Positions 33,271-56,704 are shown, counted from the stretch's first letter. The stretch: DNA of 64,000 nt from a virus (IMGVR_UViG_3300033463_000041:53147-117146), one strand, 5' to 3'. Notes: generated from the letters alone by a model not told the origin. A program made the numbers and translations.

Positions 33271-34137
33271 ATGAGTAAGAACAAAGCTACACATCTGCGT
33301 CACATCGTGACCGTAAGCAACAACAAGGGTGGGGCAGGAAAGACCACCACAGTATTGAACTTGGCAGTGGCCATTATGAAACGAGGCTACCGCGTTCTTG
33401 TCATCGACATGGATCCTCAGTGCAACCTCTCCACCAGTATCGGGTGGGACATGAAGCGCCAGGGAACGAAGAAAGAACCCGGGGAGCCTACGATGTTCAC
33501 AGCACTTTGTGAGGGAGCAAACATTCCCGTGTATCGTAACAGCATTGGACTATACTACACGCCATCGTCACGATGGATGGAGGATGCCGACGTCTATCTG
33601 AACAGCAACAAGGTGACAGACCCTGTAAGAGCCTTACGTGCCTTGTTAGCCGAACCCATCGACGACCACACTGGCGAAGGACTCACAGAATGGGAGAGCA
33701 GTTTTGATTTCATCTTCATCGACACCCAACCCGCCATGAGCCGTGTCACGGTCAATGCCGTATGCGCTGCCGACGGCATTATCATTCCCGTTGAGCTGGA
33801 GCAGTTTGCCGTTGACGGCTATGTCGAAACTATCGGTAAGATCATCAAGATCAAGAAAGTCTCAAACCCGACGCTGCAGATTCACGGCATATTACTCACG
33901 AAGGTAAACAACCGCTTGAAGAACGCTAAGAACTGGGAGGCCGACATGCGCGACCAGGGCGACGTGTTCAATGCCGTCATCCGTCGCTCTAACGACATCA
34001 CCAACTCGCAAGACCGCAGCTACGACACCACACCCGATGCCTGTCACGACATCTTCAGCTATCGTGGTGCCAGGAGCAATGTCAGCGAAGACTTCATCCT
34101 GCTTGCAGACGAATACCTGAAGAAATGGGGAAAGTAG
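33271..34137 (+). CDS. parA: ParA/Soj family partition ATPase
   Basis: Deviant Walker A NNKGGAGKTT, VLVIDMDPQCN, FIFIDTQP. Confidence 0.93.
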   Translation: MSKNKATHLRHIVTVSNNKGGAGKTTTVLNLAVAIMKRGYRVLVIDMDPQCNLSTSIGWDMKRQGTKKEPGEPTMFTALCEGANIPVYRNSIGLYYTPSSRWMEDADVYLNSNKVTDPVRALRALLAEPIDDHTGEGLTEWESSFDFIFIDTQPAMSRVTVNAVCAADGIIIPVELEQFAVDGYVETIGKIIKIKKVSNPTLQIHGILLTKVNNRLKNAKNWEADMRDQGDVFNAVIRRSNDITNSQDRSYDTTPDACHDIFSYRGARSNVSEDFILLADEYLKKWGK

Positions 34138-37106: not shown

Positions 37107-38039
37107 ATGGAAGAAAAGAAACAAACCACCCAGAGTCAGCCGACGGCACAGCCCGCCGACGAGAAGAACCTGCCCATGCGCTACATCAGGCAGCCGTACC
37201 CCATCTCGGCTATTCAGGCCGACCTCTCCACTCAGCAGATACGTATTCTCGTCGGCATGATGCAGAGCGTGCAGGATGGCGTGCAAGCCATGTTTGAGCG
37301 CGGGCCCGTAGACGGTCAGCTGCAACTGTTTCCAGAAATGCAGGACGACCGTGTGAACATCGACTTCAAGTTCAGCGACGTCGTTGATCGTCCTGATGCC
37401 TATCGCGACGTGGAGCGCGTGGCCAAGAAGTTCATGGAGATGGTTTTCCGCTACGAAGACAAGCAAAAGGGCGAAGTAAGCCTGTCGCACTTTGTCGATG
37501 AGATTACCTATCCCTCCCGTGGCAGCAAGCGCGACAAGATCCGCTTCACCTTCACCAAGAAGCAGGCCCAGGCCGTCTTCAACTTCACCATGTACAGCCG
37601 CTATCTCCTGCCCGTAGTCACTTCTTCAAAGAGCAAGCACACCGCCCGTCTCTACATGCTTATTACATCCGCACGTGGGTTCGAGCGCGACGACTCCGGC
37701 ATCTTCCACTGGTACGTCACCTACGAAGAGCTGCGCCGTATTCTCGGCTGTGACGACAAGGACGAGCACGACCGCTGGTATCGCAAGTCGCAGAAGCTCT
37801 ACAAGCATTTCAAGTCCGATGTGCTGCGTACCGCCCAGCGCGAGTTGAAAGCCCTTGCCGACGAAGGGAAGAGCGACTGTTGGTTCGACTTCACCGAACT
37901 GCCGGAAGGTTTCGACGGTGAACCTCTTCGCTTCGACTTCCTCGTACATCTGAACGATGTCAAGAAGCCCATCGACAAGAAGGAGCCTGAGCAGACTGAA
38001 CAGCCTGAGCAGGAAACAATGCCAATGTGGGGAGAGTAG
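37107..38039 (+). CDS. Plasmid replication initiator (Rep_3/RepB family)
   Basis: YIRQP..IS..DLSTQQIRIL, KSKHTARLYMLI, YEELRRILG, YKHFKSDVLRTAQREL; adjacent iterons. Confidence 0.8.
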   Translation: MEEKKQTTQSQPTAQPADEKNLPMRYIRQPYPISAIQADLSTQQIRILVGMMQSVQDGVQAMFERGPVDGQLQLFPEMQDDRVNIDFKFSDVVDRPDAYRDVERVAKKFMEMVFRYEDKQKGEVSLSHFVDEITYPSRGSKRDKIRFTFTKKQAQAVFNFTMYSRYLLPVVTSSKSKHTARLYMLITSARGFERDDSGIFHWYVTYEELRRILGCDDKDEHDRWYRKSQKLYKHFKSDVLRTAQRELKALADEGKSDCWFDFTELPEGFDGEPLRFDFLVHLNDVKKPIDKKEPEQTEQPEQETMPMWGE

Positions 38040-38042
38040 GTT

Positions 38043-38948
38043 ATGGAAAACGATTACAGCAAACTTTGGGAAGACAGCCTCGCGATGATCCGCGAGAAGT
38101 ACGGCGACAAGTTCCGGCACTGGTACGACGTGTGGTATGGCGAAGTGCGCTTCGAGAGCTACGACCCCGACACGCATGTGCTGCTTATTCAGGTGCCGTC
38201 AAAGTACGTCTATGAGTATCTGGAGATGAACGGTGCCAAGGATATCCGCTGGGCCACGAAGGAGGTCTTTAAGACAGACATCATACTGAAGTACCGTATT
38301 CTGGAGCCACGACGCGAGCCTGACTTTGCTCAGGTGGCCGACTATCTGCGCCAGCAGGGATGCACCGTTGGTACCGAACGTCCACACTTCAGAATTGCCG
38401 ATGCTGAGAAGCGAATGCGCGACGGCCTGCGCTATTTCCTTGGTCACGACGGCCAATGGTTGCCAGCTTACGACAAGGTGGCCACCTGGCTCTCCGACAA
38501 CAAGGGTAGGGGACTGGTCTGCATCGGCTATAGCGGAACGGGTAAGACACTGCTGTGTACCAAGGTGCTGCCTGTCATCCTCGGCTATAAGAGCATCGTT
38601 CAATGTACCGCCAAAGAAATGACGTTACGCAATGGCAATGTAGAGCGCATCGACGAGCTGCTGAAGGCGAAGTGTATCATCATCGACGGACTGGGCACTG
38701 AGTCTGTCGATACCAACTACTACGGTCGCCGCCGCCGACCTTTCGAGGAATTGTGCGACGCAGCAGAGAGCGATGGCAAGCTGCTTATCATCACCACCAA
38801 CTGCCTCTCTACGAAACCCATGCCCGACACGTGGGCTGGTAAGTCGCAGTTCCCCACATCCTTTGAGGAATACTATGGCCAGAACGTCATCAACCGCTTG
38901 AAGTCCATCACCACCACCGTCCTCTTCTCAGGACCCAATCTCTGGTAA
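38043..38948 (+). CDS. DnaA N-terminal-like domain fused to DnaC/IstB-like AAA+ ATPase (helicase loader)
   Basis: W..L..IRE..YDVWY..LLIQVPSKYVYEYLE; Walker A GYSGTGKT; IIIDGLGTE; LIITTN; YG.NVINRL. Confidence 0.7.
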   Translation: MENDYSKLWEDSLAMIREKYGDKFRHWYDVWYGEVRFESYDPDTHVLLIQVPSKYVYEYLEMNGAKDIRWATKEVFKTDIILKYRILEPRREPDFAQVADYLRQQGCTVGTERPHFRIADAEKRMRDGLRYFLGHDGQWLPAYDKVATWLSDNKGRGLVCIGYSGTGKTLLCTKVLPVILGYKSIVQCTAKEMTLRNGNVERIDELLKAKCIIIDGLGTESVDTNYYGRRRRPFEELCDAAESDGKLLIITTNCLSTKPMPDTWAGKSQFPTSFEEYYGQNVINRLKSITTTVLFSGPNLW

Positions 38949-40512: not shown

Positions 40513-41256
40513 ATGATGAGACCATTCTACTTTGATCCTCTCGACCCAACGGGCCAGTATTATTACGACCCGCTGCCTGAGCACCCGACGAAAGAAGAGC
40601 TGGAGGAGTACCAGCGCGTGACGATGAAGATGCTACGCAACACCATCATCGGCTTCTTCGTTCTGCTTGCGGCCTTTGCCGTGTGCTCTGTGCTCACCTC
40701 CTGCGTCACGCAGAAGCAGGAGCATCAGGAGCAGACCCATGTTGTCGTGACCGATTCTGCCGCTACCGAGCATAGCCAGGCCGTACAGGTCAGCAATCAG
40801 ACTGTCAACATCGACTCCATCATTACTGCCGTGATGCAGCGCACACGCGAGGAGTTCGCCCGTCAGGAACAGGAGCATGAGATCGTTACCGAGACGCTGA
40901 CGGAGACCGTCGATTCGCTGGGCCGTGTGGTGCGCCAGCAGCAGAAGACCACCGACCGCACCCTCTCGCGCCAGGAGCAGCAGCGCATCGAGCGTCTGGA
41001 GCAGACCTTCGAGCAGCAGATCCACCTTGCCATCTCTGAGCACGACTCCCTGTGGCAGGAGCGCTTTGCCCAGTATCAGGCCACGATGACCGACTCCCTG
41101 CAGTCCGTCCGCGACATGCAGCGTCAGACCAGTGCCACGAACCCCCTCACTTGGTGGCAGCAGTTCCGGCTGCATCTGGCCAACATCGCCCTCTATGCCC
41201 TCCTTATCATTGGCGCCATCTGGCTCATCCGCAAAAAGAAATGGTTAAACAGTTAG
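40513..41256 (+). CDS. Putative unimolecular spanin-like protein
   Basis: Hydrophobic segment ending VLTSC (lipobox), coiled periplasmic region, C-terminal TM helix followed by RKKK. Confidence 0.55.
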   Translation: MMRPFYFDPLDPTGQYYYDPLPEHPTKEELEEYQRVTMKMLRNTIIGFFVLLAAFAVCSVLTSCVTQKQEHQEQTHVVVTDSAATEHSQAVQVSNQTVNIDSIITAVMQRTREEFARQEQEHEIVTETLTETVDSLGRVVRQQQKTTDRTLSRQEQQRIERLEQTFEQQIHLAISEHDSLWQERFAQYQATMTDSLQSVRDMQRQTSATNPLTWWQQFRLHLANIALYALLIIGAIWLIRKKKWLNS

Positions 41257-41555
41257 CATTATCAGAGCTCCGACGTGTCGCCGAGAAGACACGGCTTGTC
41301 AAGGTCAAGGTGCCCGACGGCAAAGGCGGCTTCACGCTGAAGGAAGTGCTGGAGCGCGTCCCTTGGCGCGTGTGGTATGTCTCTGCATCCAATGGCGACG
41401 TCATCCGTGGGCTGGAGTGTGTCACCCTGGCTGTCGATGTCGATGGCCCCGGAGCCTATCCCTCGCGCCTGGTGCAGTTCATCGCCAGCGGTCAGACACG
41501 TCGTCTGCGCGACTGCTGCATCCTACAGGCAAATGACTTCAAGTTAGTGATATAA
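41241..41555 (+). CDS. Hypothetical phage protein
   Basis: ATG at 41241 (MVKQLA); SGQTRRLRDCCI motif. Confidence 0.6.
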   Translation: MVKQLALSELRRVAEKTRLVKVKVPDGKGGFTLKEVLERVPWRVWYVSASNGDVIRGLECVTLAVDVDGPGAYPSRLVQFIASGQTRRLRDCCILQANDFKLVI

Positions 41556-41565
41556 AGTTTCAGGT

Positions 41566-42045
41566 ATGTTTCCACAACAGTATCTCAAGAAAATAGCTTC
41601 TGCCGTATCCAAGCGTTCCGGCATCTGTCAGGCCACCGTAGAGCAGGTGCTGCCTGCCTTCATCGACGAGGTGCGCTTCCAGCTCACCGAAGGCAAGCTC
41701 AGTGTACCCATCGACAGTTTCGGCACCTTTGCCCTCATCGACATTCCCGAGCGTCAGCACCTTTATACGTATAAGGGTGCCAACGAGTTGCGCACCCTGC
41801 CGCCCAAGAAGAAGTTGAAGTTTGCCCCAGCCCGCAGCTTCCGTCGTGAACTGGAGGCCGGTGTCTTCGATGCCAGTCGCAAGTCGTTCTGTCGCCACCC
41901 CAAAGACCCCATCCTGCGCAACCGCGCACAGATGGCCTACCGTGCCGACCGCAGAGACCAAATAAATAAGGGCGCCACCAAATTTTTGAAGCCCACCACG
42001 GATGACACAGATGACACAGATGATGAGGAGAAACATGAATCATGA
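41566..42045 (+). CDS. HU/IHF family DNA-binding protein
   Basis: IASAVSKRSGICQATVEQVL..IDSFGTF..PER..KKKLKFAPARSF. Confidence 0.75.
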   Translation: MFPQQYLKKIASAVSKRSGICQATVEQVLPAFIDEVRFQLTEGKLSVPIDSFGTFALIDIPERQHLYTYKGANELRTLPPKKKLKFAPARSFRRELEAGVFDASRKSFCRHPKDPILRNRAQMAYRADRRDQINKGATKFLKPTTDDTDDTDDEEKHES

Positions 42046-42230
42046 ACCCTGAAACCGCCCGTTAGGGCAAATGTCGCTTATTTGTCCCAAAGTTTTAGCA
42101 AACATTAACAATAATGGATTTTATGTTTCTCATACCCGATAAACACCACCATCAACCTCAGTGTCGTTTCCGTTGACAACAAGCACATAAACTAAACCCA
42201 TTCCATATATTAAGTCTTATGCCATTTGTT

Positions 42231-42270
42231 ACAGCCCGACAGTCACACGAACTGCCGGGCTGTTTCTTTT
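42231..42270 (+). terminator. Intrinsic terminator
   Basis: ACAGCCCG.CAG...CTG.CGGGCTGT followed by TTCTTTT. Confidence 0.65.
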
Positions 42271-42275
42271 GCGAG

Positions 42276-42339
42276 GTAACAAAGAAAGTATAATAAATCT
42301 TAAAACATTTGGCGGTAACAAAAATAATAATTACCTTTG
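42276..42339 (+). promoter_or_regulatory. Promoter with two GTAACAAA(N)A(N)A(N)TA operator-like boxes
   Basis: TTTG 42308, TACCTTTG 42332-42339; boxes at about 42276 and 42315. Confidence 0.55.
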
Positions 42340-42368
42340 CGTCAGATTTCAAAACAAAGCTACACGTT

Positions 42369-42881
42369 ATGAACATGGAAAAAGTAAAAGTCACTCAGGA
42401 CGTTGTTTATCAGTTTATCACCGATCACAATGTCAATCTCTCGGGTATCGCCCGCGAGATGCAGGCCAACCCTACGCTTGTTGCCGGATGCTTCAAGCGC
42501 AATGCCGACCGCAACGGTCGTCCTCGCCACTTCACCGCTCAGACCCTGCCACGTCTGAACGAAGCCCTCGACAAGTTTGCTGCCAACATGCGCCAGAGTG
42601 TTGTGTCCTTTGGTAGCGAGCAGACCTACACCAACAATCGTGGTGTGACATACGACCCTGGCACCATCCCTGCCATCAAGCAGTTGTCGCAGTACTTCAA
42701 CCTCACCCAGTTCATTGTGCGCATCCTTGGCTGGACTGAGAACAAGAAGAACCTGACGTTCTCGTCGCCAACGGCTAAGATGTTCGGCTGCATCAGTCAG
42801 GATGACATCAACCGTATCAATGCCGAACTGCTTGCCGTGTCTGGAGTGCTCTCCAGCTATGAGGTAGTTGAAGACAGGTAA
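42369..42881 (+). CDS. Putative HTH DNA-binding protein (candidate repressor)
   Basis: VNLSGIAREMQANPTLVAGCF HTH-like segment, with a second FNLTQFIVRILGW unit; ATG at 42369. Confidence 0.55.
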   Translation: MNMEKVKVTQDVVYQFITDHNVNLSGIAREMQANPTLVAGCFKRNADRNGRPRHFTAQTLPRLNEALDKFAANMRQSVVSFGSEQTYTNNRGVTYDPGTIPAIKQLSQYFNLTQFIVRILGWTENKKNLTFSSPTAKMFGCISQDDINRINAELLAVSGVLSSYEVVEDR

Positions 42882-42949
42882 TATTTCGCTTCACGTTTGA
42901 TGTTGTAAAGCAATCAGCAATAACCTTGTGCGGGATTATTTGCTGATTG

Positions 42950-43132
42950 TTTTTTTTTGATTTCTCTACGGAAAACACACATTCCAACAAATATTTTTTT
43001 TTTGATTCGCGCACCTATCGCGACGCAGAACCCGCGCCTCGCTGGGCGGCGGAGCCTGCGGATCCGCCGTTCGGACTGGCTGCAAATATGCTGCAAAGGT
43101 GCAAAGGTGCAAAGGTTGCAAAGGTGCAAAAA
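42950..43132. other. Candidate packaging (pac/cos) or genome-end site
   Basis: T-tracts, GC-rich block with CGGCGGA/TCCGCCG hairpin, then tandem TGCAAAGG repeats; lies at the boundary with the early region. Confidence 0.35.
43081..43132 (+). repeat. Tandem 8-bp repeat TGCAAAGG (4 exact, 2 degenerate copies)
   Basis: Seen directly in the sequence. Confidence 0.85.
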
Positions 43133-43202
43133 TAGGAAAGCCCACCAACACCCGCACGATTATGAATAAGGTACGCGATGGAAAGCAAAAAAAATGCTGT
43201 TT

Positions 43203-43258
43203 GCAACAAAAAAAGTAGTTCTAAAATTTGGAAAGTAACAAAAAAAGTAGTATCTTTG
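43203..43258 (+). promoter_or_regulatory. Early-region promoter with two operator-like boxes
   Basis: TTTG 43227, TATCTTTG 43251-43258; GCAACAAAAAAAGTA 43203 and GTAACAAAAAAAGTA 43235. Confidence 0.7.
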
Positions 43259-43264
43259 CCAATG

Positions 43265-43895
43265 TCAGAACGACACAAGAACGGAAACACTGACAAAGAG
43301 TTCTCAAACATATTGATACATCGTACCGCACAAGCCGCAAATATCTTTGCAAGTTAGTGTGAAGAGCACGGAAATTCTACCACTTAGTAGTGGGCACGTG
43401 TGCCCAAATCAGAAAAGCAAGAGGCCGTGTTGATATAGAACTTTGCCTACATTGGTATGGCTTGTAAGGTAGTCCCACATTGGTGGGTAGGTGTATTAAT
43501 TGGACAACGGCTGCAACCTATGGATGTAGTGTATAGGTACGCAAATGCCCGTAAAACGGCATAAGCGGTAAAACGCTATCGTGTACCCAGTGCTATATCT
43601 GGCGGACTAATAATGTGGTCGGTTACAAACGAAAGGGAAATGCTATATAGCCGTATGCTATACAGCCCTGCGCCTGATGGGGCATAACGGAACGTATTGG
43701 ATAGTTCCGGAGTGGGCATACGTACAAAGTGGATAGGCCCGGGTAGGAACTATAGACGCCAGTCTATAGGTAGGTATGAATGAACGACTACCGGATTTAT
43801 CCGGCGGAAACTATAGGCCTATAGAGAAAGTGAGCACTATGTGCAGGGAGTTCGGCACTCCCCTATGGGCGCAATGATAGCAATGTCGCTATCAG
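43265..43895 (+). ncRNA. Putative large structured non-coding RNA or leader
   Basis: ~650 nt with no sense-strand ORF of 60 aa or more between a consensus promoter and the first early ATG; many perfect hairpins; tRNA-like minihelix at 43818-43870. Confidence 0.5.
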
Positions 43896-43911
43896 GTAAA
43901 ATCTTACAATT

Positions 43912-44538
43912 ATGGCAAACAAGAAGAACGTTCCCGCACAGAACACAAACAGTGCAGTATCCGTGAGTATCGAACTTTCCCGTACCGCTATGAAGAAAGC
44001 CCTGGGAGCAGTGTTTAACGAGACTTGCAAGTTCAAGCAGGCTTGTCGTGTATTCGACGGCATGGGTGCTTTCCCCGTACCTACCGGTAAGAACTCCACT
44101 ATGCGCTTTGACGAGCTGCTCAAGCCCCTTGCTATCAACTTTAAGGGCGGTCGCCTTGACCCCGAGAGTGTGAAGAGTGCATGGAAAGTCATGACCGCTG
44201 ACGGCTATATGGCTCTCTATAAGGATGTGCAGGGCTATGAGGCAGTAGAGGGCGACGAGGAGAAGTCACGCAAGGTGTACACCTGGAACTCGGAGAAGTC
44301 GCAGTATGACGGCGTATCGGTCAAGCGTATCGTGGCCGTGGAGAAGTGGAACGCAGGTCTTATCCTTGAGGGTATCTTGCAGGCAGCGTTTACCGCCTAC
44401 TATATCGACGAGGCAGCTAAGAGTCAGAAAGCATGGGACGAGTACGAGGGCGAGCTCTATGTCTTCGACAAGGTGCAGGACAAGGACGGCATCACTAACA
44501 AGCGCCACATCATCCGCAAGACACAGGTGGAGTTCTAA
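43912..44538 (+). CDS. Hypothetical early protein
   Basis: 208 aa, strong codon bias, A-rich initiation region. Confidence 0.75.
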   Translation: MANKKNVPAQNTNSAVSVSIELSRTAMKKALGAVFNETCKFKQACRVFDGMGAFPVPTGKNSTMRFDELLKPLAINFKGGRLDPESVKSAWKVMTADGYMALYKDVQGYEAVEGDEEKSRKVYTWNSEKSQYDGVSVKRIVAVEKWNAGLILEGILQAAFTAYYIDEAAKSQKAWDEYEGELYVFDKVQDKDGITNKRHIIRKTQVEF

Positions 44539-44653
44539 GGAACTCCCACCTATCCCCATCGGAGCCTGACATAGAGTGGAAACATGGCTATGGCGGTGGA
44601 CTTGTCGGTGTCCACCCAGGCACAAAGTATAACATCATAACATCGTGAAGACT

Positions 44654-45076
44654 ATGAGCGAAAGAACGACGAAGCAGATCTGCGCCCGCATGAGAGAAAT
44701 CAGCGCAAGCAGAACGTTCCACCATCAGCGCAAGCAAAGGGTGGAGAAGTGTGAAACTATCTATGAGCAGACTATGGTGGTCAAGGGTGGGCGCAAACCC
44801 AAGCACTTTATGACCTCCAAGCAGCTTATCGAAGCCTATGAGCAGGTGGAGTGGGAGACAGAGAACCGCCACCAGATGTTCGAGGCTGGCAAGGGTACGC
44901 GCTTCACTAAGCGCACTCATGTGAACAACGGAGCCCACTATACGAAGAGTGGTGGAGTAACTACGACCAAGCGACCTACCGCTCATGGCGAAGTGTGCTC
45001 TATCGGCAGACAGATTGTAGTCAAGCGGTTCAGCAACAGTCGCCTGACGTGTGTATGCAAGAGCATCGTGTATTAA
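44654..45076 (+). CDS. Basic hypothetical early protein
   Basis: ATG at 44654. Confidence 0.55.
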   Translation: MSERTTKQICARMREISASRTFHHQRKQRVEKCETIYEQTMVVKGGRKPKHFMTSKQLIEAYEQVEWETENRHQMFEAGKGTRFTKRTHVNNGAHYTKSGGVTTTKRPTAHGEVCSIGRQIVVKRFSNSRLTCVCKSIVY

Positions 45077-45249
45077 CAAGCAACAACTAACCGGCACCCA
45101 GCGACGGCTGAGAGCGTAGATATAGCCAGACACTTGAAAGCCCACCTCTATAGGACTATGGTGAGGTGGTGAGCGGAACGTGCAGCGCGAGGATCGAGAC
45201 GCTATCAGCAAGAAGCAGTGTGCCTAAAACAATATCGGAGGACAATCGT

Positions 45250-45618
45250 ATGAAGACTATCATCAAGATTATCGTGGCCGCTATGGTCGGCCTGTTCCTG
45301 GCAGCGTGGTCAGATGAGCACCACGTAGGCTATCGCTACGGATTCGTGGCTGTGTATTTCTTCGGCTCTATCGTGGTGTACTACGCCATCGAGTGCGCCA
45401 TCTCTGCAATGACGAAGCGCAAGCAGAACCGCTTCGACACTATCAAGCATCGTATGGGTAGCCGTAGCTATGGTCAGGCCGCCGTGTTCATCGGCACGGC
45501 TTGCCTCTATATGTGTACTCCCCAGCAGTGTGAAGAAATGTGCGATGACCTATGGCATCATGGTCAGCAGGCACACATGCAGATGCTGGAAGGTAATGAG
45601 ACATTCGACATTCTATAA
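45250..45618 (+). CDS. Membrane hypothetical protein
   Basis: Two hydrophobic helices; ATG at 45250. Confidence 0.6.
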   Translation: MKTIIKIIVAAMVGLFLAAWSDEHHVGYRYGFVAVYFFGSIVVYYAIECAISAMTKRKQNRFDTIKHRMGSRSYGQAAVFIGTACLYMCTPQQCEEMCDDLWHHGQQAHMQMLEGNETFDIL

Positions 45619-45640
45619 CATCAAATCAAATCTTACAATT

Positions 45641-45844
45641 ATGGCAACAAAGAGACAACAGGCGATGATTATCGCTATGGCCGCTATGGTCGGCACAAGT
45701 ACGGACATCATCGACCGCAACGCAGCAGCCGCTGCCCTGCGCGACATGAGAAGTGACATCGGTCACGACCAGACCTGCAGCATACAGGAAGACCCCTTCG
45801 ACTTTTCCTACACGTGGGATCCTACGGACGGAGATGTGGCATAA
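45641..45844 (+). CDS. Small hypothetical protein
   Basis: ATG at 45641 with the same 20-nt start context as gene 43912. Confidence 0.6.
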   Translation: MATKRQQAMIIAMAAMVGTSTDIIDRNAAAAALRDMRSDIGHDQTCSIQEDPFDFSYTWDPTDGDVA

Positions 45845-45863
45845 ACTATCGGGAGGAACGGCT

Positions 45864-46187
45864 ATGAAGAAGATTGAAGTATTGGAGTGGGGCTTGCAGC
45901 ATATTGCAGTCAACTATAAGATGGGTGCAAGTACCGAGGATTTGCAGAGCGAGGCCGAGGGTTGCATCTATGTGACCGAAGAGCATCCAGACGTATCGCC
46001 CGCACCTGTGAACGATGTGCAGATGCTATGCGACGACCTGGGCATAGATCGTGCCTATATGAAGACTTCGGAGTTCGGCATCGAGGTTACGCTGGATTGG
46101 CAGTGGCCTGAGACTATCGGACAGGAAGAGTACACCCCTACTGGGCATGAGATGTGGAAGCGCTTCGGCGTGGAGATTGGTTCTTAA
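45864..46187 (+). CDS. Acidic hypothetical protein
   Basis: ATG at 45864. Confidence 0.6.
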   Translation: MKKIEVLEWGLQHIAVNYKMGASTEDLQSEAEGCIYVTEEHPDVSPAPVNDVQMLCDDLGIDRAYMKTSEFGIEVTLDWQWPETIGQEEYTPTGHEMWKRFGVEIGS

Positions 46188-46193
46188 TCGGCT

Positions 46194-46742
46194 ATGACTA
46201 TGGCAACGAAGAAGCAGGCGGGGACTGAGCGCCCCTATACGTGGTACGAGTTCCTGAGCATCATCAGGAACATCGTGGAAGAACAGAAGATTGTGATGCA
46301 CGACGAGTTGGACTACTTTAATGCTAATTGGGAGCAGCAGGATAAGCCTATCGACATAGGTGTGTGGGACTGGCACCTTACCACGAAGACGGACTTCGGT
46401 GGCTGTGAGGGTGTCTATACGGACTTCTATGCTCATGTGGACTACAACGACGTGCGCCATGTGTTTACAGCTAAAACGCTGGACGGCAGCCGTGAGGCAT
46501 ACGTGAAGATGCACGAGTTTGCAGCCCGTGTGTGCCTGGTGGTATGTGACTATGTGAAAGAGCATGAGGACGAGTTCAACTGGACTGGCTTTGATGTGGG
46601 CTATTACAAGGACGGGGAACGTGTGACCTATATGCTGGCCCACAAGCACGAGAACGCTATGAAGTATGCCTTGGAACTGAAGCAGAAAGGCGAAAGGGCA
46701 TGGATACGTGACAATGCAGAACGAAAGTATGAGGAGGTATGA
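46194..46742 (+). CDS. Hypothetical protein
   Basis: 182 aa, DFGGCEGVYTD motif. Confidence 0.7.
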   Translation: MTMATKKQAGTERPYTWYEFLSIIRNIVEEQKIVMHDELDYFNANWEQQDKPIDIGVWDWHLTTKTDFGGCEGVYTDFYAHVDYNDVRHVFTAKTLDGSREAYVKMHEFAARVCLVVCDYVKEHEDEFNWTGFDVGYYKDGERVTYMLAHKHENAMKYALELKQKGERAWIRDNAERKYEEV

Positions 46743-47005
46743 AAAAAAGAATTTATCCCTACATGGCGGCTATGATGCTGGCTATGGCGAGCGACCCGTA
46801 TTTCTCTCTTGGACGCTCTAAGCGAACTATGAGCGAGGCAGAGCGCAAGCGTTACGAAGAGTATAAGCGCGAACGTGCTCACCGACTGAATCCTGTGGAT
46901 ATGTCGGAGCATGAGTTTATTATCAAGGGTGAGCGAATCATGGCGCATGACAAGAAGACCGCCAAGAAAATCTATGCTCGCCGACATCCAAAGAAAGGGA
47001 AGTGA
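46739..47005 (+). CDS. Hypothetical protein
   Basis: 88 aa; ATGA overlap with previous gene. Confidence 0.6.
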   Translation: MKKRIYPYMAAMMLAMASDPYFSLGRSKRTMSEAERKRYEEYKRERAHRLNPVDMSEHEFIIKGERIMAHDKKTAKKIYARRHPKKGK

Positions 47006-48413: not shown

Positions 48414-48860
48414 ATGGGACTGGATTTAAGTGCAATCAGAGCAGCTGCTGCAAAGATGAAGCAGGAGCAGGAACAGCCAAAGACGAACACGAATAGCACG
48501 AATAGTGCTAAAACAAAGGCTGAGCCTAAAGCTAAGACGCAAACTAAGAGTGCGCCTAAGACTGACACGCCCAAGACCAAGGGCGGTGCGAAGTACGTCA
48601 TCCCTGCCGAGTTCAAGCAGGCTATCGAAGACCACTTGAAGGGTAGGGCAGACATGAAGGAGAAACTATCGAAGAAAGGCAAGTCGATTGACGGCTGCTG
48701 TGATTATATATTCGACGTGATGCGCAAGCGGGCTGAAAAGGAGCGCGGAGGCAAGAGCGCCGTGGGCCTCTATGCCAACCCTGACGAAATATTCGGTCTG
48801 GCTTGTCACTACTATGACGAAAGCGAAGAGGCCTTGAAAGAGGAACTGAAAAAGAAATAA
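48414..48860 (+). CDS. PcfK-like protein (AcrIIA9-related family)
   Basis: FKQAIEDHL..RA..KSIDGCCDYI..DEIFGLACHYYDE; paired with PcfJ. Confidence 0.7.
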   Translation: MGLDLSAIRAAAAKMKQEQEQPKTNTNSTNSAKTKAEPKAKTQTKSAPKTDTPKTKGGAKYVIPAEFKQAIEDHLKGRADMKEKLSKKGKSIDGCCDYIFDVMRKRAEKERGGKSAVGLYANPDEIFGLACHYYDESEEALKEELKKK

Positions 48861-48863
48861 GCT

Positions 48864-50195
48864 ATGGCAAGGAAACTGACAGCATTTGAGAAACAATGCA
48901 CGACTATCAATAACCGACTGAGCGGGTATCCAAAGGGTGACAAGGAGCGCAAGATATACGGCAGCGTATATCAGCCTGGTATTATTACCCGTATGTATCG
49001 TCGTCGCAGGGTGTGGTATTGCAGCGAGTGTGGCAGCGAGATTGGGGTGCTGACACAGGAGGAGTGCCCAGTATGTCACAAGAAATGGACGGCGGCGTGT
49101 TGTGATGAGAAAGGTCGTGAGGTTGGCTATCACATGACGCTGGAAGCCAAGGGCGATATTCAGTTGACACGCATCTATCGTGTGGAACGTACTACGCACT
49201 ATGGCAAGCAGGCCACAAGGTTTGTGTGGGAGGTGGAGCGTATCATGTATAGTCCGACTGGTGAGCGCAAGGTGTTTGCCCGTAACATTCAGGCGATGTC
49301 GTGGTACTACGATGCTTTCAGCTGTGGCTCGCCTATCAAGATGAAGCGTGAGTGCAACCACTCGCAGTATTCTGCATCGAAGTCGCAGTTGCGCTATAAC
49401 CTGAACGTGTGGAGCTACGACATTCAGAGTTTGACGGAGCAATGGCGCTATAAAGATATCTCTGGACTGATGGAAGACTTCAAGGGCGATACCAGTGCGC
49501 TGCGAGTGATTGCCTATCCGTGGGCTGAGACCATGCGCAAGACGGGGCAGGAAAAGTTGTTCCGCTATCTGGTAAATGAAATGGAGTCGCTGCCTACTGG
49601 TTGTCACCATGCGCTGAACATCTGTGCTCGTAACAAGTACACGATAAAAGATCCGTCGCTATGGCTCGACCACTTGTGGCTGCTGAAGTATCTCAGACTT
49701 GACACGCACAATGCCCACTATGTATGCCCCAAGGATTTGAGGACACAGCATAATGAGCTGCTGGAGCGTAAGCGTCATGAGGACGAACGCAGGGCGGCTA
49801 TTCGCCGTGAGCGTGAGACGCAACGGAAGTTGGAGCGTATGGAGAAAGAGAAGACGGCCTATCGGAAACGGTGGGCAAAGGTGCTACCGCTGACGCTATC
49901 AGGTCAGAACCTGAATATCCGTCCGCTGCAATCGGTGGAAGAGTTTGCGGAAGAGGGCAACGCCATGCACCACTGCGTATTCTCTATGGACTACTACAAG
50001 AAGTCCACCAGTCTGATATTATCGGCAAAGGACAACGACGGCAACCGACTGGCTACTATCGAGTACAACACGAAGAACAAGGAGATTGTGCAGTGCCGTG
50101 CGGCATGTAACAAGGTACCTGAGCGCGACGCTGAGATACGTCAGTTGATAACCTCTCACAGGGCAGACTTCCAGCGATTGCTGAAAGCTGCCTAA
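48864..50195 (+). CDS. PcfJ domain protein
   Basis: N-terminal CSECG/CPVC; C-terminal PLQSVEEFAEEGNAMHHCVF..YY..ATIE..IVQCRAACN. Confidence 0.8.
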   Translation: MARKLTAFEKQCTTINNRLSGYPKGDKERKIYGSVYQPGIITRMYRRRRVWYCSECGSEIGVLTQEECPVCHKKWTAACCDEKGREVGYHMTLEAKGDIQLTRIYRVERTTHYGKQATRFVWEVERIMYSPTGERKVFARNIQAMSWYYDAFSCGSPIKMKRECNHSQYSASKSQLRYNLNVWSYDIQSLTEQWRYKDISGLMEDFKGDTSALRVIAYPWAETMRKTGQEKLFRYLVNEMESLPTGCHHALNICARNKYTIKDPSLWLDHLWLLKYLRLDTHNAHYVCPKDLRTQHNELLERKRHEDERRAAIRRERETQRKLERMEKEKTAYRKRWAKVLPLTLSGQNLNIRPLQSVEEFAEEGNAMHHCVFSMDYYKKSTSLILSAKDNDGNRLATIEYNTKNKEIVQCRAACNKVPERDAEIRQLITSHRADFQRLLKAA

Positions 50196-50231
50196 TACCT
50201 ATATCGAAGTTGAATTTTAAACTTTACGACA

Positions 50232-51278
50232 ATGGCAAAGAAAAAATTTACGATGAACGACTCGCAGAAGGAGAAGTATGCGGAGTTGTTCGAGGCTGAA
50301 CTGAACGCAATGGAGCGTAGCGACTGGACGCAACCGTGGGTGTCGCCCAATATGGGTGCGCCGTGTAACCTCTACCGCCGTCGGCATCCCTACCGCAAGA
50401 GCAATGCCTTCTGGCTGGCTATGCTGATGCAGGTGAAGGGCTGGAGCACGCCCTACTTCCTGACGAAGACGGACTTGGTGAACGAGGACGGCAGTCGCAA
50501 GTATGACGGTCTGCAGGCTAACTGCACGATGGTGACTGACGAGCAGGGTATGCCGAAGTTCGACGACAACGGCTGTCCTGTGATGGAGTACGAACGGAGA
50601 TTCCCCGTATTCTTCTACAAGCCTATCTACAAGGACAAGGACGGCAACACCGTGAGCGAAGAGGACTATCGGGCCATGAGCGACGAGGAACGTCAGGAGT
50701 TGAAGGTGTTCTTCTACCGCACTCACTATCTGGTGTACAACCTGGACCAGACGAACTTCAAGGAACTCTATGCCGACGACTACGAGGCGATGGTGGCGGT
50801 TCCTGAGCACGACTACCAGACAGGCCAGCGTGACGAGGTGCTGGAGCGGATGATCGCTGGCGAATGGATTTGTCCTATTCACTTCGGCGGTCACTCGGCT
50901 CACTACAGCCCTATGGAGCACCATATCCGACTGCCGGAGCGTTCACAGTTCCTGGGCGATGCGAAGTTCTATGCGGTAGCTCTGCATGAGATGGCGCACT
51001 CTACGAAGAAAGACCTGCGCCGCGAGTTGGACGAGCCCTACGAGGAATTTGTGGCAGAGCTGACGGCAGCGTGTGTATGCAGCCGTCTTGGTGTCGGCAA
51101 GTTGCTGGACGAGCAGCATATTGCCTATGTGGCCTCGTGGCGCAAGGCTCTCCGCGACGACAAGGACTTCATCCCTCGCGTCATCGACCATGTGCAAATG
51201 GCCTCTAACTTCATCTTCAACCGCTACGATGCCGTGGCGAAGAAGATGGAAGGTCCGAAGCTGCTGCAAGCAGCGTAA
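50232..51278 (+). CDS. ardC: ArdC-like antirestriction protein (ssDNA-binding domain + zincin-like domain)
   Basis: WTQPW..PCN..Y..N..L, YLVYNLDQT, AHYSP..HHIRLP..F, LHEMAHST, YEEFVAEL, YVASW. Confidence 0.85.
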   Translation: MAKKKFTMNDSQKEKYAELFEAELNAMERSDWTQPWVSPNMGAPCNLYRRRHPYRKSNAFWLAMLMQVKGWSTPYFLTKTDLVNEDGSRKYDGLQANCTMVTDEQGMPKFDDNGCPVMEYERRFPVFFYKPIYKDKDGNTVSEEDYRAMSDEERQELKVFFYRTHYLVYNLDQTNFKELYADDYEAMVAVPEHDYQTGQRDEVLERMIAGEWICPIHFGGHSAHYSPMEHHIRLPERSQFLGDAKFYAVALHEMAHSTKKDLRRELDEPYEEFVAELTAACVCSRLGVGKLLDEQHIAYVASWRKALRDDKDFIPRVIDHVQMASNFIFNRYDAVAKKMEGPKLLQAA

Positions 51279-51286
51279 CACTATCG

Positions 51287-51311
51287 AGGGGTCGTCGCCT
51301 GACGGCTCCTC
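51287..51311 (+). other. Intergenic hairpin after ardC
   Basis: GAGGGGTCGTC GCCT GACGGCTCCTC (stem with G-U pairs). Confidence 0.45.
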
Positions 51312-51346
51312 AAAATCTATCAAAATCTTACAAAAAATTATCCAAA

Positions 51347-51598
51347 ATGGAGACTATCAAGTATGACGTAACGGCGGCGCATCTATGTAAGACAGACTGC
51401 CCGTTTTGTGTAGGCGACCAGTGGAAGAAGGTTGGTGCCTATGAGTGTACCGAACGTTGCCCTGCCTTTGTCAGTCATGACATGGAGCAGCAGATCGTAG
51501 TATGCAACCCCGAAAAGGTTCCCTATGCCCGCTTCGTATGGAGCGATAAGATGCGAAAGAAATACCCCAATCTGGGAAAAGATAAAATCAAAAAGTAA
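51347..51598 (+). CDS. Cys-rich small protein
   Basis: CKTDCPFC..KVGAYECTERCPAF..VVC. Confidence 0.6.
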   Translation: METIKYDVTAAHLCKTDCPFCVGDQWKKVGAYECTERCPAFVSHDMEQQIVVCNPEKVPYARFVWSDKMRKKYPNLGKDKIKK

Positions 51599-51605
51599 AA
51601 CGACT

Positions 51606-52247
51606 ATGAACTATTACGTGATTGACGATGTGAAGACCAAGGTGTATAGCATATTCGGATCTTCGTATAAAAAGATGCCTAATGCTCCTGCTATTGTAGC
51701 TGTGAGCGACTACAACAAGAAGAACGTTGAGAATGGCCGTGAGTTTACAACCGACGGCATTGTCTATGCAGACGGCACTTTCTGCTTCGGGCCGAGCAAG
51801 AGGATTGTTTCCTACGGCTCATGTAGAGAGGCAACACCTGAAGAGGTGCAACGGCTGGCCGACTGTGCGGCAAGTGTGAACCTGGCCTATATGACGCTGG
51901 AGCAGGAGCACAAGAATATCTGGACTAAGAAGACGTGGACTACGACCTACGAGGCTCTGGCCTATATTTCGACGGACGCTATGCGCTTCCGCTTGAATGG
52001 TGAGATTGTGGGCTGGAAAGAGGTTGAAGCCTACGAGCCTGCCGAGGGTATGCACTTCGCCTGGTACCACGACAACGGCTATAGCTATTTGGGCGTGGAT
52101 CCTGCGAAGAAAGAAGACTGGATAGCTGCTGTACGCAAAATCAAGAAAGTGTGGTATGGCAATCTGTACGGCATCGTGTATCTGGAGAATGGCGTTATCG
52201 ACGTTCGCCAGTGCAGCAAGAGATATAGTGAAGTGAGTAACACATAA
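51606..52247 (+). CDS. Hypothetical protein
   Basis: ATG at 51606. Confidence 0.65.
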   Translation: MNYYVIDDVKTKVYSIFGSSYKKMPNAPAIVAVSDYNKKNVENGREFTTDGIVYADGTFCFGPSKRIVSYGSCREATPEEVQRLADCAASVNLAYMTLEQEHKNIWTKKTWTTTYEALAYISTDAMRFRLNGEIVGWKEVEAYEPAEGMHFAWYHDNGYSYLGVDPAKKEDWIAAVRKIKKVWYGNLYGIVYLENGVIDVRQCSKRYSEVSNT

Positions 52248-52260
52248 ACGAGTTACGACT

Positions 52261-52752
52261 ATGAATACAGTAGAAATCATCATGCAGCAGAAGAAGATTG
52301 CTGCCGAGAAGGAAAAGGCCGAGCGTAAATTGGCCTATGACACAATCAAGGAGTGGGTGGAGAAGCATGTAGACAAGTTCGCCCACGAGTTACTGAACAA
52401 TATAGCCAGACGCTTTTCGGCTGGTTCGTCTATGGCGCGCTATCGCTGCGTCTCAGGTTTCTGTAACCACCATCTGGGCGAGGACTATCCAGAGAACGTG
52501 GGAAGATGGTGGAAGGTGGAGTACTGGAACAACTTCAAGCAGAAAGAGTATGGATTCGACTTCGTGGAGCGGTTCTTCAATCAGGCTCCTATCGAAAAGA
52601 GCGAATACGCTGAGAATATCTGTTGTGCTTTCGTATCGCAGTTGGTGTTCCATACTGCGCTGCCTGAACTGCTCAGGAGCGAGGGCTTTGTGGTAAAGCA
52701 CGACGGCTGCGGATGCTGTGAAATGATTGAGGTGAGACTACCTGAAGCATAG
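52261..52752 (+). CDS. Hypothetical protein
   Basis: 163-aa ORF. Confidence 0.65.
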   Translation: MNTVEIIMQQKKIAAEKEKAERKLAYDTIKEWVEKHVDKFAHELLNNIARRFSAGSSMARYRCVSGFCNHHLGEDYPENVGRWWKVEYWNNFKQKEYGFDFVERFFNQAPIEKSEYAENICCAFVSQLVFHTALPELLRSEGFVVKHDGCGCCEMIEVRLPEA

Positions 52753-52764
52753 GAGGATAAGACT

Positions 52765-53154
52765 ATGGGACAATGTTATTCTATAGAAATCAAGGCGAGG
52801 TTCAAGGACGAAAACGGCGCAAAGAAAGCGCTGCAGGCGAAGCTCGACAGGCATGAAGAGGAGCACGTAAACTACAACCTCGACCACTTCACAGGTGAGC
52901 TTGGTCTGTCTACCGACAACCTGCACGACCTGATGGGCATATTCTTCGGCGGCTGGAAGGGAAAGTTGGAACCTTCGATCACCGACGACTGGGAGTATGC
53001 CGACTTCGATGCCTCCTATGGCTGGGAGAGTATTATGATGGAAGCCTTCGAGGTGATCGCGCCCTACCTGGCCGACGGCTCCGTGATTAAAATCTATCCC
53101 GACTCCGGCTGCGACCACGGAACGGTCAGGAACGGGAAATGCAAATGGGCATAA
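52765..53154 (+). CDS. Hypothetical protein
   Basis: 129 aa, FDASYGWE motif. Confidence 0.65.
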   Translation: MGQCYSIEIKARFKDENGAKKALQAKLDRHEEEHVNYNLDHFTGELGLSTDNLHDLMGIFFGGWKGKLEPSITDDWEYADFDASYGWESIMMEAFEVIAPYLADGSVIKIYPDSGCDHGTVRNGKCKWA

Positions 53155-53171
53155 CTAAAACGAGTGAGACT

Positions 53172-53561
53172 ATGGAGAAGAAAGATTTCTATGGCGACAT
53201 CAGGAATCTGCACAAGGAAATTGTGGCGGAGATTGTAAAGTTGATGGTGGAGCATGACGTGAAGGAGGTTGACCTACTCGGTAGTAGTGCCGACCACGCT
53301 TACGTTATCGGCGCACCATTCGACTGGGATGTGGACTACATGGAGGCCGAGGTCTCTAAGGTGTACTACGAGGACGGGCAGTTGGTGCTTGACGTTTGCT
53401 GGAACATCGACACGTTCGAGTTGGCTGAGCAGAACGAGAATGGTGACATTGGCGATGCCTATACAGATGTAAAGGCCAATGACTTCACCTGCATCAAGCC
53501 CTGTGCTGGCATTGATTCGGTGTATGAGAGTGTATGGCAAGTGTTGGAACAAAACAAGTAA
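53172..53561 (+). CDS. Acidic hypothetical protein
   Basis: ATG at 53172; very D/E-rich. Confidence 0.65.
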   Translation: MEKKDFYGDIRNLHKEIVAEIVKLMVEHDVKEVDLLGSSADHAYVIGAPFDWDVDYMEAEVSKVYYEDGQLVLDVCWNIDTFELAEQNENGDIGDAYTDVKANDFTCIKPCAGIDSVYESVWQVLEQNK

Positions 53562-53566
53562 CCACT

Positions 53567-54688
53567 ATGACACAGAAAGAGTATATCCAGATGGTGAACG
53601 AAGCGAAGCAACGGAGCTTTGAGTATTATGTGCTGTCGAAGCCGACTATCAGCGACGCGACGTTCGATGCGATGGTGGACTGCATAGAGTTGGCGGAGTT
53701 GGAGCATCCTGAATGGACGCTACCTGACTCGCCGACGCAGTGTGTAGGCAGTGACCTGTCGGGTAACGGCAAGCGACTGGTGCGTCACCGCACACCGATG
53801 CTATCGTGCCAAAAGGCACAGACAACAGAGGCGGTTGAGAAATGGATTGCCGCTACGGAGAAGAAGTTGAAGAAGCAGGACGCCGGTATCTACTACGAAC
53901 TGGAATGGAAGTTGGACGGCATCAGTTGTTCGCTGGTGTATCAGGACGGCACGCTGATCAGCGCCGCTACCCGTGGCGACGGCAAGCAGGGCAGCGACCT
54001 GATGGAGCACGTGAAGATGATACCGACGGTGCCTATGACGATTACCGAAATGGGTAGGGTAGAGGTGCGCGGCGAGATTGTATGTCCCAAGTCTCACCTG
54101 CCGTTTATGTCAGAGAGCTATGCCGACTGCAGAAGTGCAGCAAGTGGCATCTGTGGCAAGAACTATGTGACCGCCGACACGACGCTGCTGGAGTTCGTGG
54201 TGTGGCAGTTGGAAGGCGACGAAATCGGCACAGAGGCTTGTGCTATCGACATTGCCGAGGATTTGGGCTTCAAGACCTGTGGCTATAAGGGTTGCTGGAC
54301 GCCAAATGTTATCAAGCGTCTGGGTGAGTTCGCTATCGAGCGTGACGCACTGGACTGGCCTACTGACGGTGTGGTGGTGAAGATAAACACCAAGCCGCTG
54401 GCTGAGAGGATGGGTTATACCGACCATCATCCGAAAGGCTGCATCGCCTACAAGTTCCCACCGCAGAAGACGACGACCACGGTAAGGCGCATAGAGATAA
54501 CCGTTGGTGCTACGGGCCGTCGTACCCCTGTCTGCTGGTTTGATCCTGTGACTATCGGGGCACGTACTATGGAGAAAGCCAGTCTTGGCAGTGAGGACAC
54601 GATGGAGAAGCTCGGCGTCTATGAGGGCTGCACCGTAGAAGTGGGCCTGAGTAACGATGTGACGCCGAAAGTGTACAGAGTAATCTAA
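53567..54688 (+). CDS. Minimal NAD+-dependent DNA ligase (Ia, adenylation and OB domains only)
   Basis: YYVLSKPTISDATFD, PDSPTQCVG, H..PMLS, EWKLDG, ATRGDG..G, EVRGE, DGVVVK, IAYKF, VGATGR.TP, NDVTPKV; ends right after motif VI. Confidence 0.88.
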   Translation: MTQKEYIQMVNEAKQRSFEYYVLSKPTISDATFDAMVDCIELAELEHPEWTLPDSPTQCVGSDLSGNGKRLVRHRTPMLSCQKAQTTEAVEKWIAATEKKLKKQDAGIYYELEWKLDGISCSLVYQDGTLISAATRGDGKQGSDLMEHVKMIPTVPMTITEMGRVEVRGEIVCPKSHLPFMSESYADCRSAASGICGKNYVTADTTLLEFVVWQLEGDEIGTEACAIDIAEDLGFKTCGYKGCWTPNVIKRLGEFAIERDALDWPTDGVVVKINTKPLAERMGYTDHHPKGCIAYKFPPQKTTTTVRRIEITVGATGRRTPVCWFDPVTIGARTMEKASLGSEDTMEKLGVYEGCTVEVGLSNDVTPKVYRVI

Positions 54689-54700
54689 AACGATACGACT

Positions 54701-55099: not shown

Positions 55100-55139
55100 G
55101 CGAGAGCAGAGCCATGCTTGCATGAGCTATGCCGAGCGT
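55093..55139 (+). repeat. 47-bp direct repeat copy 1 (REP-like)
   Basis: CGATTAAGCGAGAGCAGAGCCATGCTTGCATGAGCTATGCCGAGCGT. Confidence 0.85.
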
Positions 55140-55203
55140 GAGCAGACTCGACGAAAGTCAAAGTGAATGATAAACTTTGCACATATTGTAAGATTTTTGT
55201 TTC

Positions 55204-55240
55204 GGACTGGCCTGCTGTGACAGCACGCCGGTCCTCTTTT
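55204..55240 (+). terminator. Terminator-like hairpin
   Basis: GGACTGGC.TGCTG TGA CAGCA.GCCGGTCC followed by TCTTTT. Confidence 0.5.
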
Positions 55241-55275
55241 GGTGAGAAAATAATGTTTTAAAACACGATATAGCT

Positions 55276-56691: not shown

Positions 56692-56704
56692 TACTTGAAC
56701 TTTC

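Follow-up and report, generated by a model that had tools for sequence, protein, structure and literature searches.

Heading the long downstream operon of a probable phage-plasmid of the rumen is what is very probably a genuine, conserved and structured RNA belonging to an undescribed family. It lies within a stretch of 64,000 nucleotides (nt), here called the window, which comprises bases 53147-117146 of the IMG/VR virus record IMGVR_UViG_3300033463_000041 (117,146 bases, rated 98% complete). The RNA is located between a Bacteroidetes-type promoter and the start codon (ATG 43912, in window positions, as throughout) of a gene for a protein of 208 amino acids (aa). The evidence for it is mainly comparative: the sequence is non-coding, its loops are conserved among three lineages in which the letters of its helices vary, and no Rfam model recognizes it.

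Architecture and conservation of the leader RNA

After the removal of duplicates there are at least six distinct leader sequences in three lineages, namely A (the window, L003 and L064), B (L004 and L006) and C (L184, the 3′ end of which is lost at the contig end). The homologous DNA consisted of four viral contigs and one metagenome-assembled genome (MAG), together with L184, which came from a loop-motif scan of metagenomes; the sources are rumen-type phage or metagenome contigs and, in the case of the MAG, a member of the Prevotellaceae. Using nhmmer and MAFFT, conservation was found over the whole length of the leader in lineages A and B, and L184 was aligned by nhmmer only from profile position 256 onward. 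Between lineages the leaders are 54-62% identical. The core can be aligned even where the product of the adjacent open reading frame (ORF) falls to 61-62% identity, and between the window and L003 it is 98.4% identical, compared to 87.9% for the adjacent ORF and 93-97% for the flanks. In lineage B the core is about as conserved as the neighbouring genes (94.9% vs 95.5%). The parts of the RNA are as follows.

43262-43895, + strand: structured RNA (operon leader) of approximately 620 nt; predicted 5′ end at about 43262-43274; conservation runs on to ATG 43912
43264-43294, + strand: 5′ hairpin P1, GTCAG (43264-43268) pairing with CTGAC (43290-43294), with the conserved A/C-rich loop AACGA.AC.AGAACGGAAAC
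43300-43497, + strand: lineage-specific 5′ domain with hairpins at 43380-43393, 43391-43406 and 43474-43487; unalignable across lineages
43498-43640, + strand: 5′ core, beginning with conserved ACAACGGC
43523-43531 with 43591-43599, + strand: outer helix of the 5′ core, 9 base pairs
43536-43540 with 43583-43587, + strand: inner helix of the 5′ core
43546-43561 and 43564-43577, + strand: two invariant hairpins with GTAAAAC (GUAAAAC) loops, which cap the two-part helix
43605-43608 with 43617-43620, + strand: small hairpin of the 5′ core, GACT with GGTC
43627-43636, + strand: invariant AAACGAAAGG of the 5′ core
43641-43735, + strand: insertion domain of about 95 nt in lineages A and C; lineage B has a stretch about 55 nt shorter instead
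43740-43875, + strand: 3′ core, with invariant CGGGTAGG at 43740-43747
43750-43769, + strand: H1 of the 3′ core, in four covarying forms, all of which pair
43791-43804, + strand: H2 of the 3′ core, a variable hairpin
43817-43824 with 43863-43870, + strand: H3 of the 3′ core, a long-range helix enclosing H4 and H5
43834-43837 with 43841-43844, + strand: H4 of the 3′ core
43846-43850 with 43858-43862, + strand: H5 of the 3′ core
43876-43893, + strand: final hairpin, GATAGC-AATGTC-GCTATC, 18 nt ahead of the start codon; no T-run

The stem of P1 varies among the lineages while the letters of its loop are conserved; in RNAalifold, two of five rows have both sides changed at pairs 3-41, 4-40 and 7-37. 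The 5′ domain which follows is 95.8% identical inside lineage A, and its single-sequence folds differ in shape from one lineage to another.

MAFFT misplaces the 5′ strands of the helices in the 5′ core, and for this reason a covariance model (R1) was built from lineages B and C with a hand-made structure and used to realign all six sequences (alignment A8). R1 matches the window with 95.9 bits (E 1.7e-21). The letters of the outer helix differ among the three lineages at seven of its nine positions, and eight or nine of the nine are paired in each of the six sequences. In A8, which was fitted to the very structure scored on it and therefore flatters the pairing, 92.2% of 180 cells are paired, compared to 80.2% in shuffles, none of 500 of which reached the observed value; slid controls gave 26-38%. 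Ten of the 30 pairs have changed on both sides. The 3′ core was scored on a plain MAFFT alignment with no fitting to structure (A9), where 99.3% of 137 cells are paired and 4 of 26 pairs have changed on both sides, with none doing so in any of the six slid controls. Within lineage A, L064 and L003 differ by an A-U to G-U change in H4. At the position of the last hairpin lineage B carries a different one, TGAC-GCTTTT-GTCA. The homologues gathered thus bear out the structured leader of the original prediction, which had proposed covariation as its check.

The conserved core amounts to approximately 380 nt in total, the peripheral insertions being lineage-specific. Loop and junction blocks (GTAAAAC twice, AAACGAAAG, CGGGTAGG and ACAACGGC) are invariant where the helices vary; together with the modular insertions this is an architecture typical of RNAs with tertiary structure. 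No pairing partners could be assigned to the invariant blocks ACAACGGC, AAACGAAAGG and GGCCCGGGTAGG, and pseudoknots are likely. The named helices contain 37 G-U cells versus 5 A-C cells, an excess which would fit folding of the + strand as RNA, given that the helices had been picked on that strand and the count is biased accordingly. Of the other clues to the strand, the orientations of the promoter and of the genes are both rightward, and the A-U to G-U change in H4 is a further one.

The RNA family is rare and its distribution very narrow. A search with R1 (the 5′ core) found the known MAG as one of 151 Prevotellaceae-family genomes sampled; a marginal match in the same sample (E 0.0053) was rejected, since the two hairpins are missing from it and it resembles coding sequence. 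Two loop-motif pattern scans matched at least 119 and at least 120 stretches, so that the census of the family is a lower bound. Apart from L184, these and the other pattern scans yielded, among the matches listed, known contigs and chance matches, and nhmmer over the 326 listed loci confirmed the L184 lineage as the one addition. There was no blastn match among 50,697 phage records or 72,556 plasmids, and tblastn of the 208-aa protein found nothing in the phage records.

No match to Rfam 15 at the gathering score was found in the 64-kilobase (kb) window. At E ≤ 10, the interval 43000-44100 gave no ROOL row and two weak rows only, TCV_Pr (18.9 bits against a cut-off of 40) and Pedo-repair (12.1 against 150), both of which we regard as noise located upstream of the RNA or across its start; relatives L003, L004, L006 and L184 gave no match at E ≤ 1. 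ROOL and GOLLD are presumably included in Rfam 15, the C4 family is in Rfam, and the motifs of the large RNA-motif survey are reportedly there as well. ROOL, GOLLD, HEARO, known riboswitches, introns, ribozymes and C4-type RNAs are therefore ruled out as far as the Rfam models tell. The suggestion of a possibly new large non-coding RNA has accordingly held: the leader is non-coding, conserved and covarying, and lacks an Rfam match both in the window and in four relatives. No description of it was found in the literature covered, to which the supplementary motif lists of PMC5737381, which might bear on novelty, do not belong.

The original prediction had likened the leader to ROOL and GOLLD. 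The shared size class stands, while membership does not, there being no covariance-model match in the window or the four relatives. In PMC5737381, ROOL is given an average length of 581 nt and a first sighting in cow rumen metagenomes, and both ROOL and GOLLD are described as often near tRNAs. Common to those RNAs and to the leader are ties to phages or prophages, a composition of many helices and junctions with few highly conserved unpaired nucleotides, and a function which is not known on either side. Unlike them, the leader RNA is the 5′ leader of a protein-coding operon, is confined to three lineages and one of 151 Prevotellaceae-family genomes sampled and, though it shares the phage context, lies in a window in which ARAGORN found no tRNA genes and no tRNA-like element.

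Coding potential, promoter and RNA-library contigs

We listed 78 ORFs of at least 25 aa over 41000-46500. Within 43265-43911 the longest sense ORFs are of 28, 25, 35, 28, 33 and 41 aa, none reaching 60 aa, as had been stated from the sequence at the outset. The 41-aa frame enters the downstream gene out of frame, a 59-aa sense frame (43178-43357) begins upstream of the promoter, and antisense frames of 98 aa (43015-43311) and 109 aa (43863-44192) merely clip the ends of the leader. Beyond this, every sense frame contains stops (8-15 per frame) and there is no codon periodicity over 43262-43911: mismatches between the window and the lineage-B relative number 35/31/38 by codon position in the core leader, compared to 57/46/96 in the adjacent ORF. 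The indels in the leader measure 1, 2, 6, 7, 25 and 29 nt, that is, not multiples of three. Coding potential was rejected on these three grounds.

The claim that the GC content resembles that of coding DNA holds in so far as the leader (0.44-0.50) comes near the coding level and stands above the AT-rich spacers (0.35-0.40); it is slightly below the neighbouring genes (0.50-0.56). The claim of dense hairpins was similarly correct in part. All six of the hairpins that had been quoted are present (43380-43393, 43391-43406, 43474-43487, 43750-43769, 43791-43804 and 43876-43893), and the folding energy is only moderately unusual.

Upstream of the RNA the following were recognized.

43227-43258, + strand: Bacteroidetes-type promoter, consisting of TTTG (43227-43230), a gap of 20 nt and TATCTTTG (43251-43258)
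43092-43130, no strand assigned: tandem TGCAAAGG array of 4-5 copies with a period of 8-9, about 100 nt upstream of the promoter and outside the RNA

The promoter, which had been predicted at the same place, fits the Bacteroides −33/−7 consensus. TATCTTTG and the TTTG upstream of it are kept in all three lineages, and over the promoter segment L003 and L064 match the window with 100% identity. The 15-nt sequence AACAAAAAAAGTAGT is repeated exactly and in direct orientation at 43205-43219 and 43237-43251, with a spacing of 32 nt; its second copy extends into the −7 box, and the promoter region appears partly duplicated. The 8-mer core of the TGCAAAGG array lies upstream of the promoter in all lineages, with a period of 8-9 in A, 13 in B and 11 in C (L184); in the relatives it is located at about 2165-2215 of L004 and about 865-830 on the minus strand of L184. 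Since the 8-mer is kept while the period changes, an operator-like site is suggested, and the array is probably an operator or another (centromere-like) protein-binding array independent of helical phase. Further upstream, at 43010-43070, a segment of approximately 79% GC with inverted repeats stands inside an otherwise AT-rich spacer and is conserved in the distant contig L184.

Part of 42900-44600 is present in 17 RNA-library runs, which come from 10 studies. Contigs were examined in four of these runs, one from each of four studies, and 11 runs with small sequence shares (X8-X18) were left out. The leader is covered by contigs in all four rumen RNA libraries, so that the predicted transcript is represented there by contigs which carry neither strand nor ends, and in each run the longest contig (355-583 nt on the stretch) is the one on the leader. 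By run, the leader contigs span 43274-43680; 43285-43639 and 43610-43759; 43274-43856; and 43276-43837. In three of the four runs the contig starts at 43274-43276 with no loose end, approximately 10 nt past the predicted start, and in the fourth the leader contig starts at an AAAC indel variant. The clustering hints weakly at a 5′ end immediately behind the promoter. No contig lies over 42906-43208 in the four runs and cover thins past 44620, neither of which is evidence for a silent spacer or for attenuation.

By the general marks of a large structured non-coding RNA, the leader is non-coding and conserved, shows compensatory change, and is covered by RNA-library contigs (these without strand or ends). 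Several points nevertheless weigh against a transcribed and folded RNA, beginning with the fitting of A8 and the choice of helices on one strand given above. The six distinct sequences, in only three lineages, allow no proper significance to be attached to the covariation. The folding energy of the 5′ core alone is unremarkable (z −1.18; 25 of 200 shuffles as good), and the 3′ core folds as well on the − strand (z −3.36; 0 of 200) as on the + strand (z −2.84; 1 of 200); for the whole leader the values are z −3.70 (0 of 20) on the + strand and z −2.40 (1 of 20) on the − strand. Energy is weak evidence which fails to separate the strands, and the comparative evidence is the stronger support for structure. 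The Logan contigs are assemblies and carry no strand, true ends or levels. Their depths (leader 4.9, 8.4-17.8, 37 and 13.4; ORF 2.0-2.7, 6.7, 2.1-7.9 and 5.3) are not comparable as expression levels, and in X2 and X4, where leader and ORF are represented by contigs of different strains, they are not comparable at all. Finally, carry-over of DNA into the RNA libraries is a possible source of the contigs.

The host element and its operon

The element encodes the genes of a tailed phage, including a 3789-aa tape-measure-like protein and a head protease, together with a HU-like protein. A ParA-like partition gene is found at 33271-34137 and a Rep_3-type initiator (WH1/WH2) at 37107-38039, beside which, within the region 37107-38948, a DnaC-like loader is encoded. 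No tyrosine integrase was found across the entire 117-kb record. Judging by this gene content, the element is probably a tailed phage which persists as a plasmid (a phage-plasmid) of rumen Prevotellaceae. By their labels, the sequencing runs containing the stretch are metagenomes of bovine or sheep gut or rumen, and the sole cellular genome with a relative is the Prevotellaceae MAG.

The gene upstream of the leader (42309-42881; 190 aa) has only a weak match to DUF5053, below the cut-off. RNA-library contigs cover it in two of the four runs examined. A hairpin with a T-run lies 3′ of this gene, at 42907-42962, and transcription of the leader should therefore start anew at the leader promoter. 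From 42881, where the upstream gene ends, approximately 1 kb free of genes extends to ATG 43912 and the first gene of the operon.

43912-44538, + strand: first operon gene, encoding the 208-aa protein, of no named family

The 208-aa protein matches no Pfam family and no PHROG. It has 20 relatives in a large protein collection, none with a domain and none named beyond "hypothetical". Its AlphaFold2 model is confident (pLDDT 81.9, pTM 0.76). At E ≤ 0.001 neither PDB nor BFVD contained a matching fold, and the protein may have a new one; a search of the ESM Atlas gave no functional lead. Genes of this family stand downstream of the RNA in five of the five distinct loci with visible downstream DNA.

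The operon behind the RNA is long (>20 kb) and co-oriented. Over 48414-61888 it contains genes for PcfK-like, PcfJ-like and ArdC-like (ArdcN plus zincin peptidase) proteins, an NAD-dependent ligase, an LPD29/DnaJ protein and a 1694-aa DarB-like methyltransferase/helicase polyvalent protein. Mobile elements typically carry such a set in their establishment or leading regions, and it is seen on conjugative elements. The ArdC, DarB and PcfJ-PcfK neighbours make an establishment or anti-defence setting plausible, as context only. The suggestions made from the sequence at the outset, of an early operon whose RNA would be made first on infection and might serve as an antitermination leader or an anti-defence decoy, are conjectural; the RNA libraries sample whole communities.

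Possible roles of the leader RNA

The evidence points to transcription rightward from the Bacteroidetes-type promoter, with the RNA opening the transcript of an establishment/anti-restriction operon. We propose that it works as a folded particle in its own right, to be grouped with the large ornate phage RNAs (ROOL and GOLLD); it may act with a protein, the co-inherited 208-aa product of the adjacent gene being the obvious candidate. Its particle-like action in trans, its release from the mRNA by processing and its partnership with a protein are inferred. A self-standing folded RNA, possibly with the co-inherited protein, is a reading which we favour tentatively, at somewhat less than an even chance, because the RNA is large, its loops and junctions are invariant, its insertions are modular and no switch-like alternative was seen; a self-standing particle is in our view more likely than a simple on/off leader. 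A fuller version of the proposal is more doubtful: that this is a new class of ornate phage RNA of the rank of ROOL and GOLLD, cut from the mRNA or ending before it, forming a particle alone or with the 208-aa protein, and acting in the establishment of the phage-plasmid, for example against host defence or in maintenance. Such a role is proposed because the RNA heads an ArdC/DarB-like operon beside a probable origin region.

Three observations speak against a self-standing RNA. The RNA and the ORF are not separated, there being no terminator, 18 nt from hairpin to ATG and the same gene family always next, which gives the look of a cis-acting 5′ untranslated region (UTR). The RNA-library contigs, which cannot give ends, reveal neither a 3′ end nor a site of processing, nor a discrete species of RNA. 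The 208-aa protein shows no recognizable RNA-binding fold in the PDB/BFVD fold search. Among the closest known systems is HEARO, the IscB omega-RNA, a large structured RNA located directly upstream of a single ORF with which it is co-oriented and co-inherited. The leader resembles it in its position ahead of such an ORF and in having a variable 5′ part followed by a conserved scaffold. Unlike it, the leader gives no Rfam match, the 208-aa ORF is without HNH, RuvC or any other Pfam domain and without a fold match, and the variable 5′ part is approximately 230 nt long and itself structured rather than a short guide.

The seamless join to the ORF favours the alternative that the RNA is a folded 5′ UTR acting on its own transcript, with processive antitermination or stabilization as the likeliest forms. 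This might render polymerase resistant to termination over the >20-kb operon (much like HK022 put or lambda nut), stabilize the mRNA, or gate it through a host or phage factor. The position right after the promoter of a long operon in the same orientation, the contiguity with the start codon of a gene which is always the next one, and the operator-like array upstream are what would be expected. The same holds for the lack of a terminator: a scan of 42000-45000 revealed no + strand site, and the last hairpin (43876-43893), lacking a T-run, does not qualify as an intrinsic terminator under the usual rule. The processive antitermination leaders HK022 put, lambda nut and Bacillus EAR share the location directly after the promoter of a long operon and measure 70-120 nt; an RNA of approximately 620 nt with a multi-junction core of approximately 380 nt is far larger than these. 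A conserved choice between terminator and antiterminator was not observed: the hairpin which competes in lineages B and C has no counterpart in A. In four of four sequences the start region is predicted to be more accessible than the RNA is on average (unpaired probability 0.50-0.63 vs 0.42-0.44). The longest complementarity between the leader and the initiation region is 9 nt, which 55 of 60 shuffles reach, in both lineages; an 8-9-nt pairing of the end of the variable domain with the −11 to +2 region, found in both lineages, is not favoured in the ensembles. Masking of the ribosome-binding site accordingly has no support, with an open start region and complementarity at chance. The complement of the invariant GTAAAAC loop is also absent from 42000-47000 (0 occurrences). 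Simple attenuation, masking of the ribosome-binding site and c4-like antisense action are thus all unsupported by the sequence. We regard a cis-acting leader as possible, though somewhat less probable than a self-standing RNA.

A role linked to replication comes into question through the surroundings of the RNA. The global minimum of the cumulative GC skew of the whole 117-kb record falls at window 43040 (G000 96186), which is intergenic and just upstream of the promoter; there the skew switches from negative to positive although the flanking genes are both on the + strand. The corresponding minima of two complete relatives are found 1.9 and 1.3 kb ahead of the RNA core (G002 39821 and G003 84905). 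The 43040 region may be a replication origin region, and the RNA therefore adjoins a probable origin or control region, which keeps alive the notion of a primer precursor, an origin-activating transcript or a copy-control RNA made from its edge, by analogy with RNA II of ColE1. T-runs, the GC-rich segment and the tandem 8-mers are found at the skew minimum, and the Rep_3 initiator, the DnaC-like loader and ParA are encoded 5-10 kb upstream. However, phage GC skew also tracks blocks of genes, and the minimum coincides with the start of the long operon; the Rep_3 gene, beside which iterons would usually be located, is 5 kb off. RNA II is a primer of approximately 550 nt, to the 5′ end of which RNA I is antisense and the 3′ end of which is at the origin, whereas here the skew minimum lies 0.2-1.9 kb upstream of the RNA and not at its 3′ end. 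The leader moreover continues straight into protein-coding genes, and an R-loop primer needs no invariant loops or covarying junctions; no antisense partner RNA came to light, although no search aimed at one was made. We therefore consider such a role improbable.

Two further explanations receive little credence. The leader could be the source of an immunity RNA, a processed piece of which would pair with downstream sites and silence the distal genes in the carrier state, as do c4 of P1 and P7, CI of P4 and CA of N15. The element looks like a phage-plasmid, the RNA sits right behind the promoter in the leader of an operon which should be needed mainly on entry, and RNA-library contigs lie on the leader in all four runs. 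The known examples are embedded in leaders in the same way and pair as antisense, but at 70-80 nt they are about one-tenth the size of this RNA of some 600 nt; there is no Rfam match of any kind and no tRNA-like element by ARAGORN, and both the lack of loop complements over 42000-47000 and the chance-level complementarity to the initiation region speak against antisense pairing. This is the least probable of the explanations considered. Scarcely better is the chance that the conservation resides in the DNA, as a single-strand promoter of the Frpo/ssi type, a recombination or packaging site, or a functionless conserved spacer. The operon does resemble a plasmid leading region (ArdC, PcfJ/K and the polyvalent protein), and the − strand folds with equally good energy. 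Frpo and ssi, though, are each one long imperfect hairpin of single-stranded DNA which rebuilds a promoter on DNA entering in that form. Here the fold is multi-branched, the + strand helices are kept through G-U pairs (37 vs 5 A-C cells), an ordinary double-strand promoter stands ahead with RNA-library contigs beginning right behind it, the host is a tailed double-stranded DNA phage with a tape-measure protein, and the leader is better conserved than the adjacent gene.

Among bacterial and phage RNAs of more than 500 nt, a conserved complex fold has been described for very few, and each of these has so far been worth biochemical study. The present one derives from a phage of rumen Bacteroidota, stands at the head of an anti-restriction/establishment operon and is represented in RNA libraries of several independent ruminant studies. 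With its promoter, its co-inherited partner gene and a compact core of approximately 380 nt suited to structural work, it offers a natural setting in which to ask what such RNAs do. Should it prove instead to be a cis-acting leader, its size would be unusual for a regulatory RNA, and it would belong to a phylum in which the signals for translation and transcription depart from those of the textbook.

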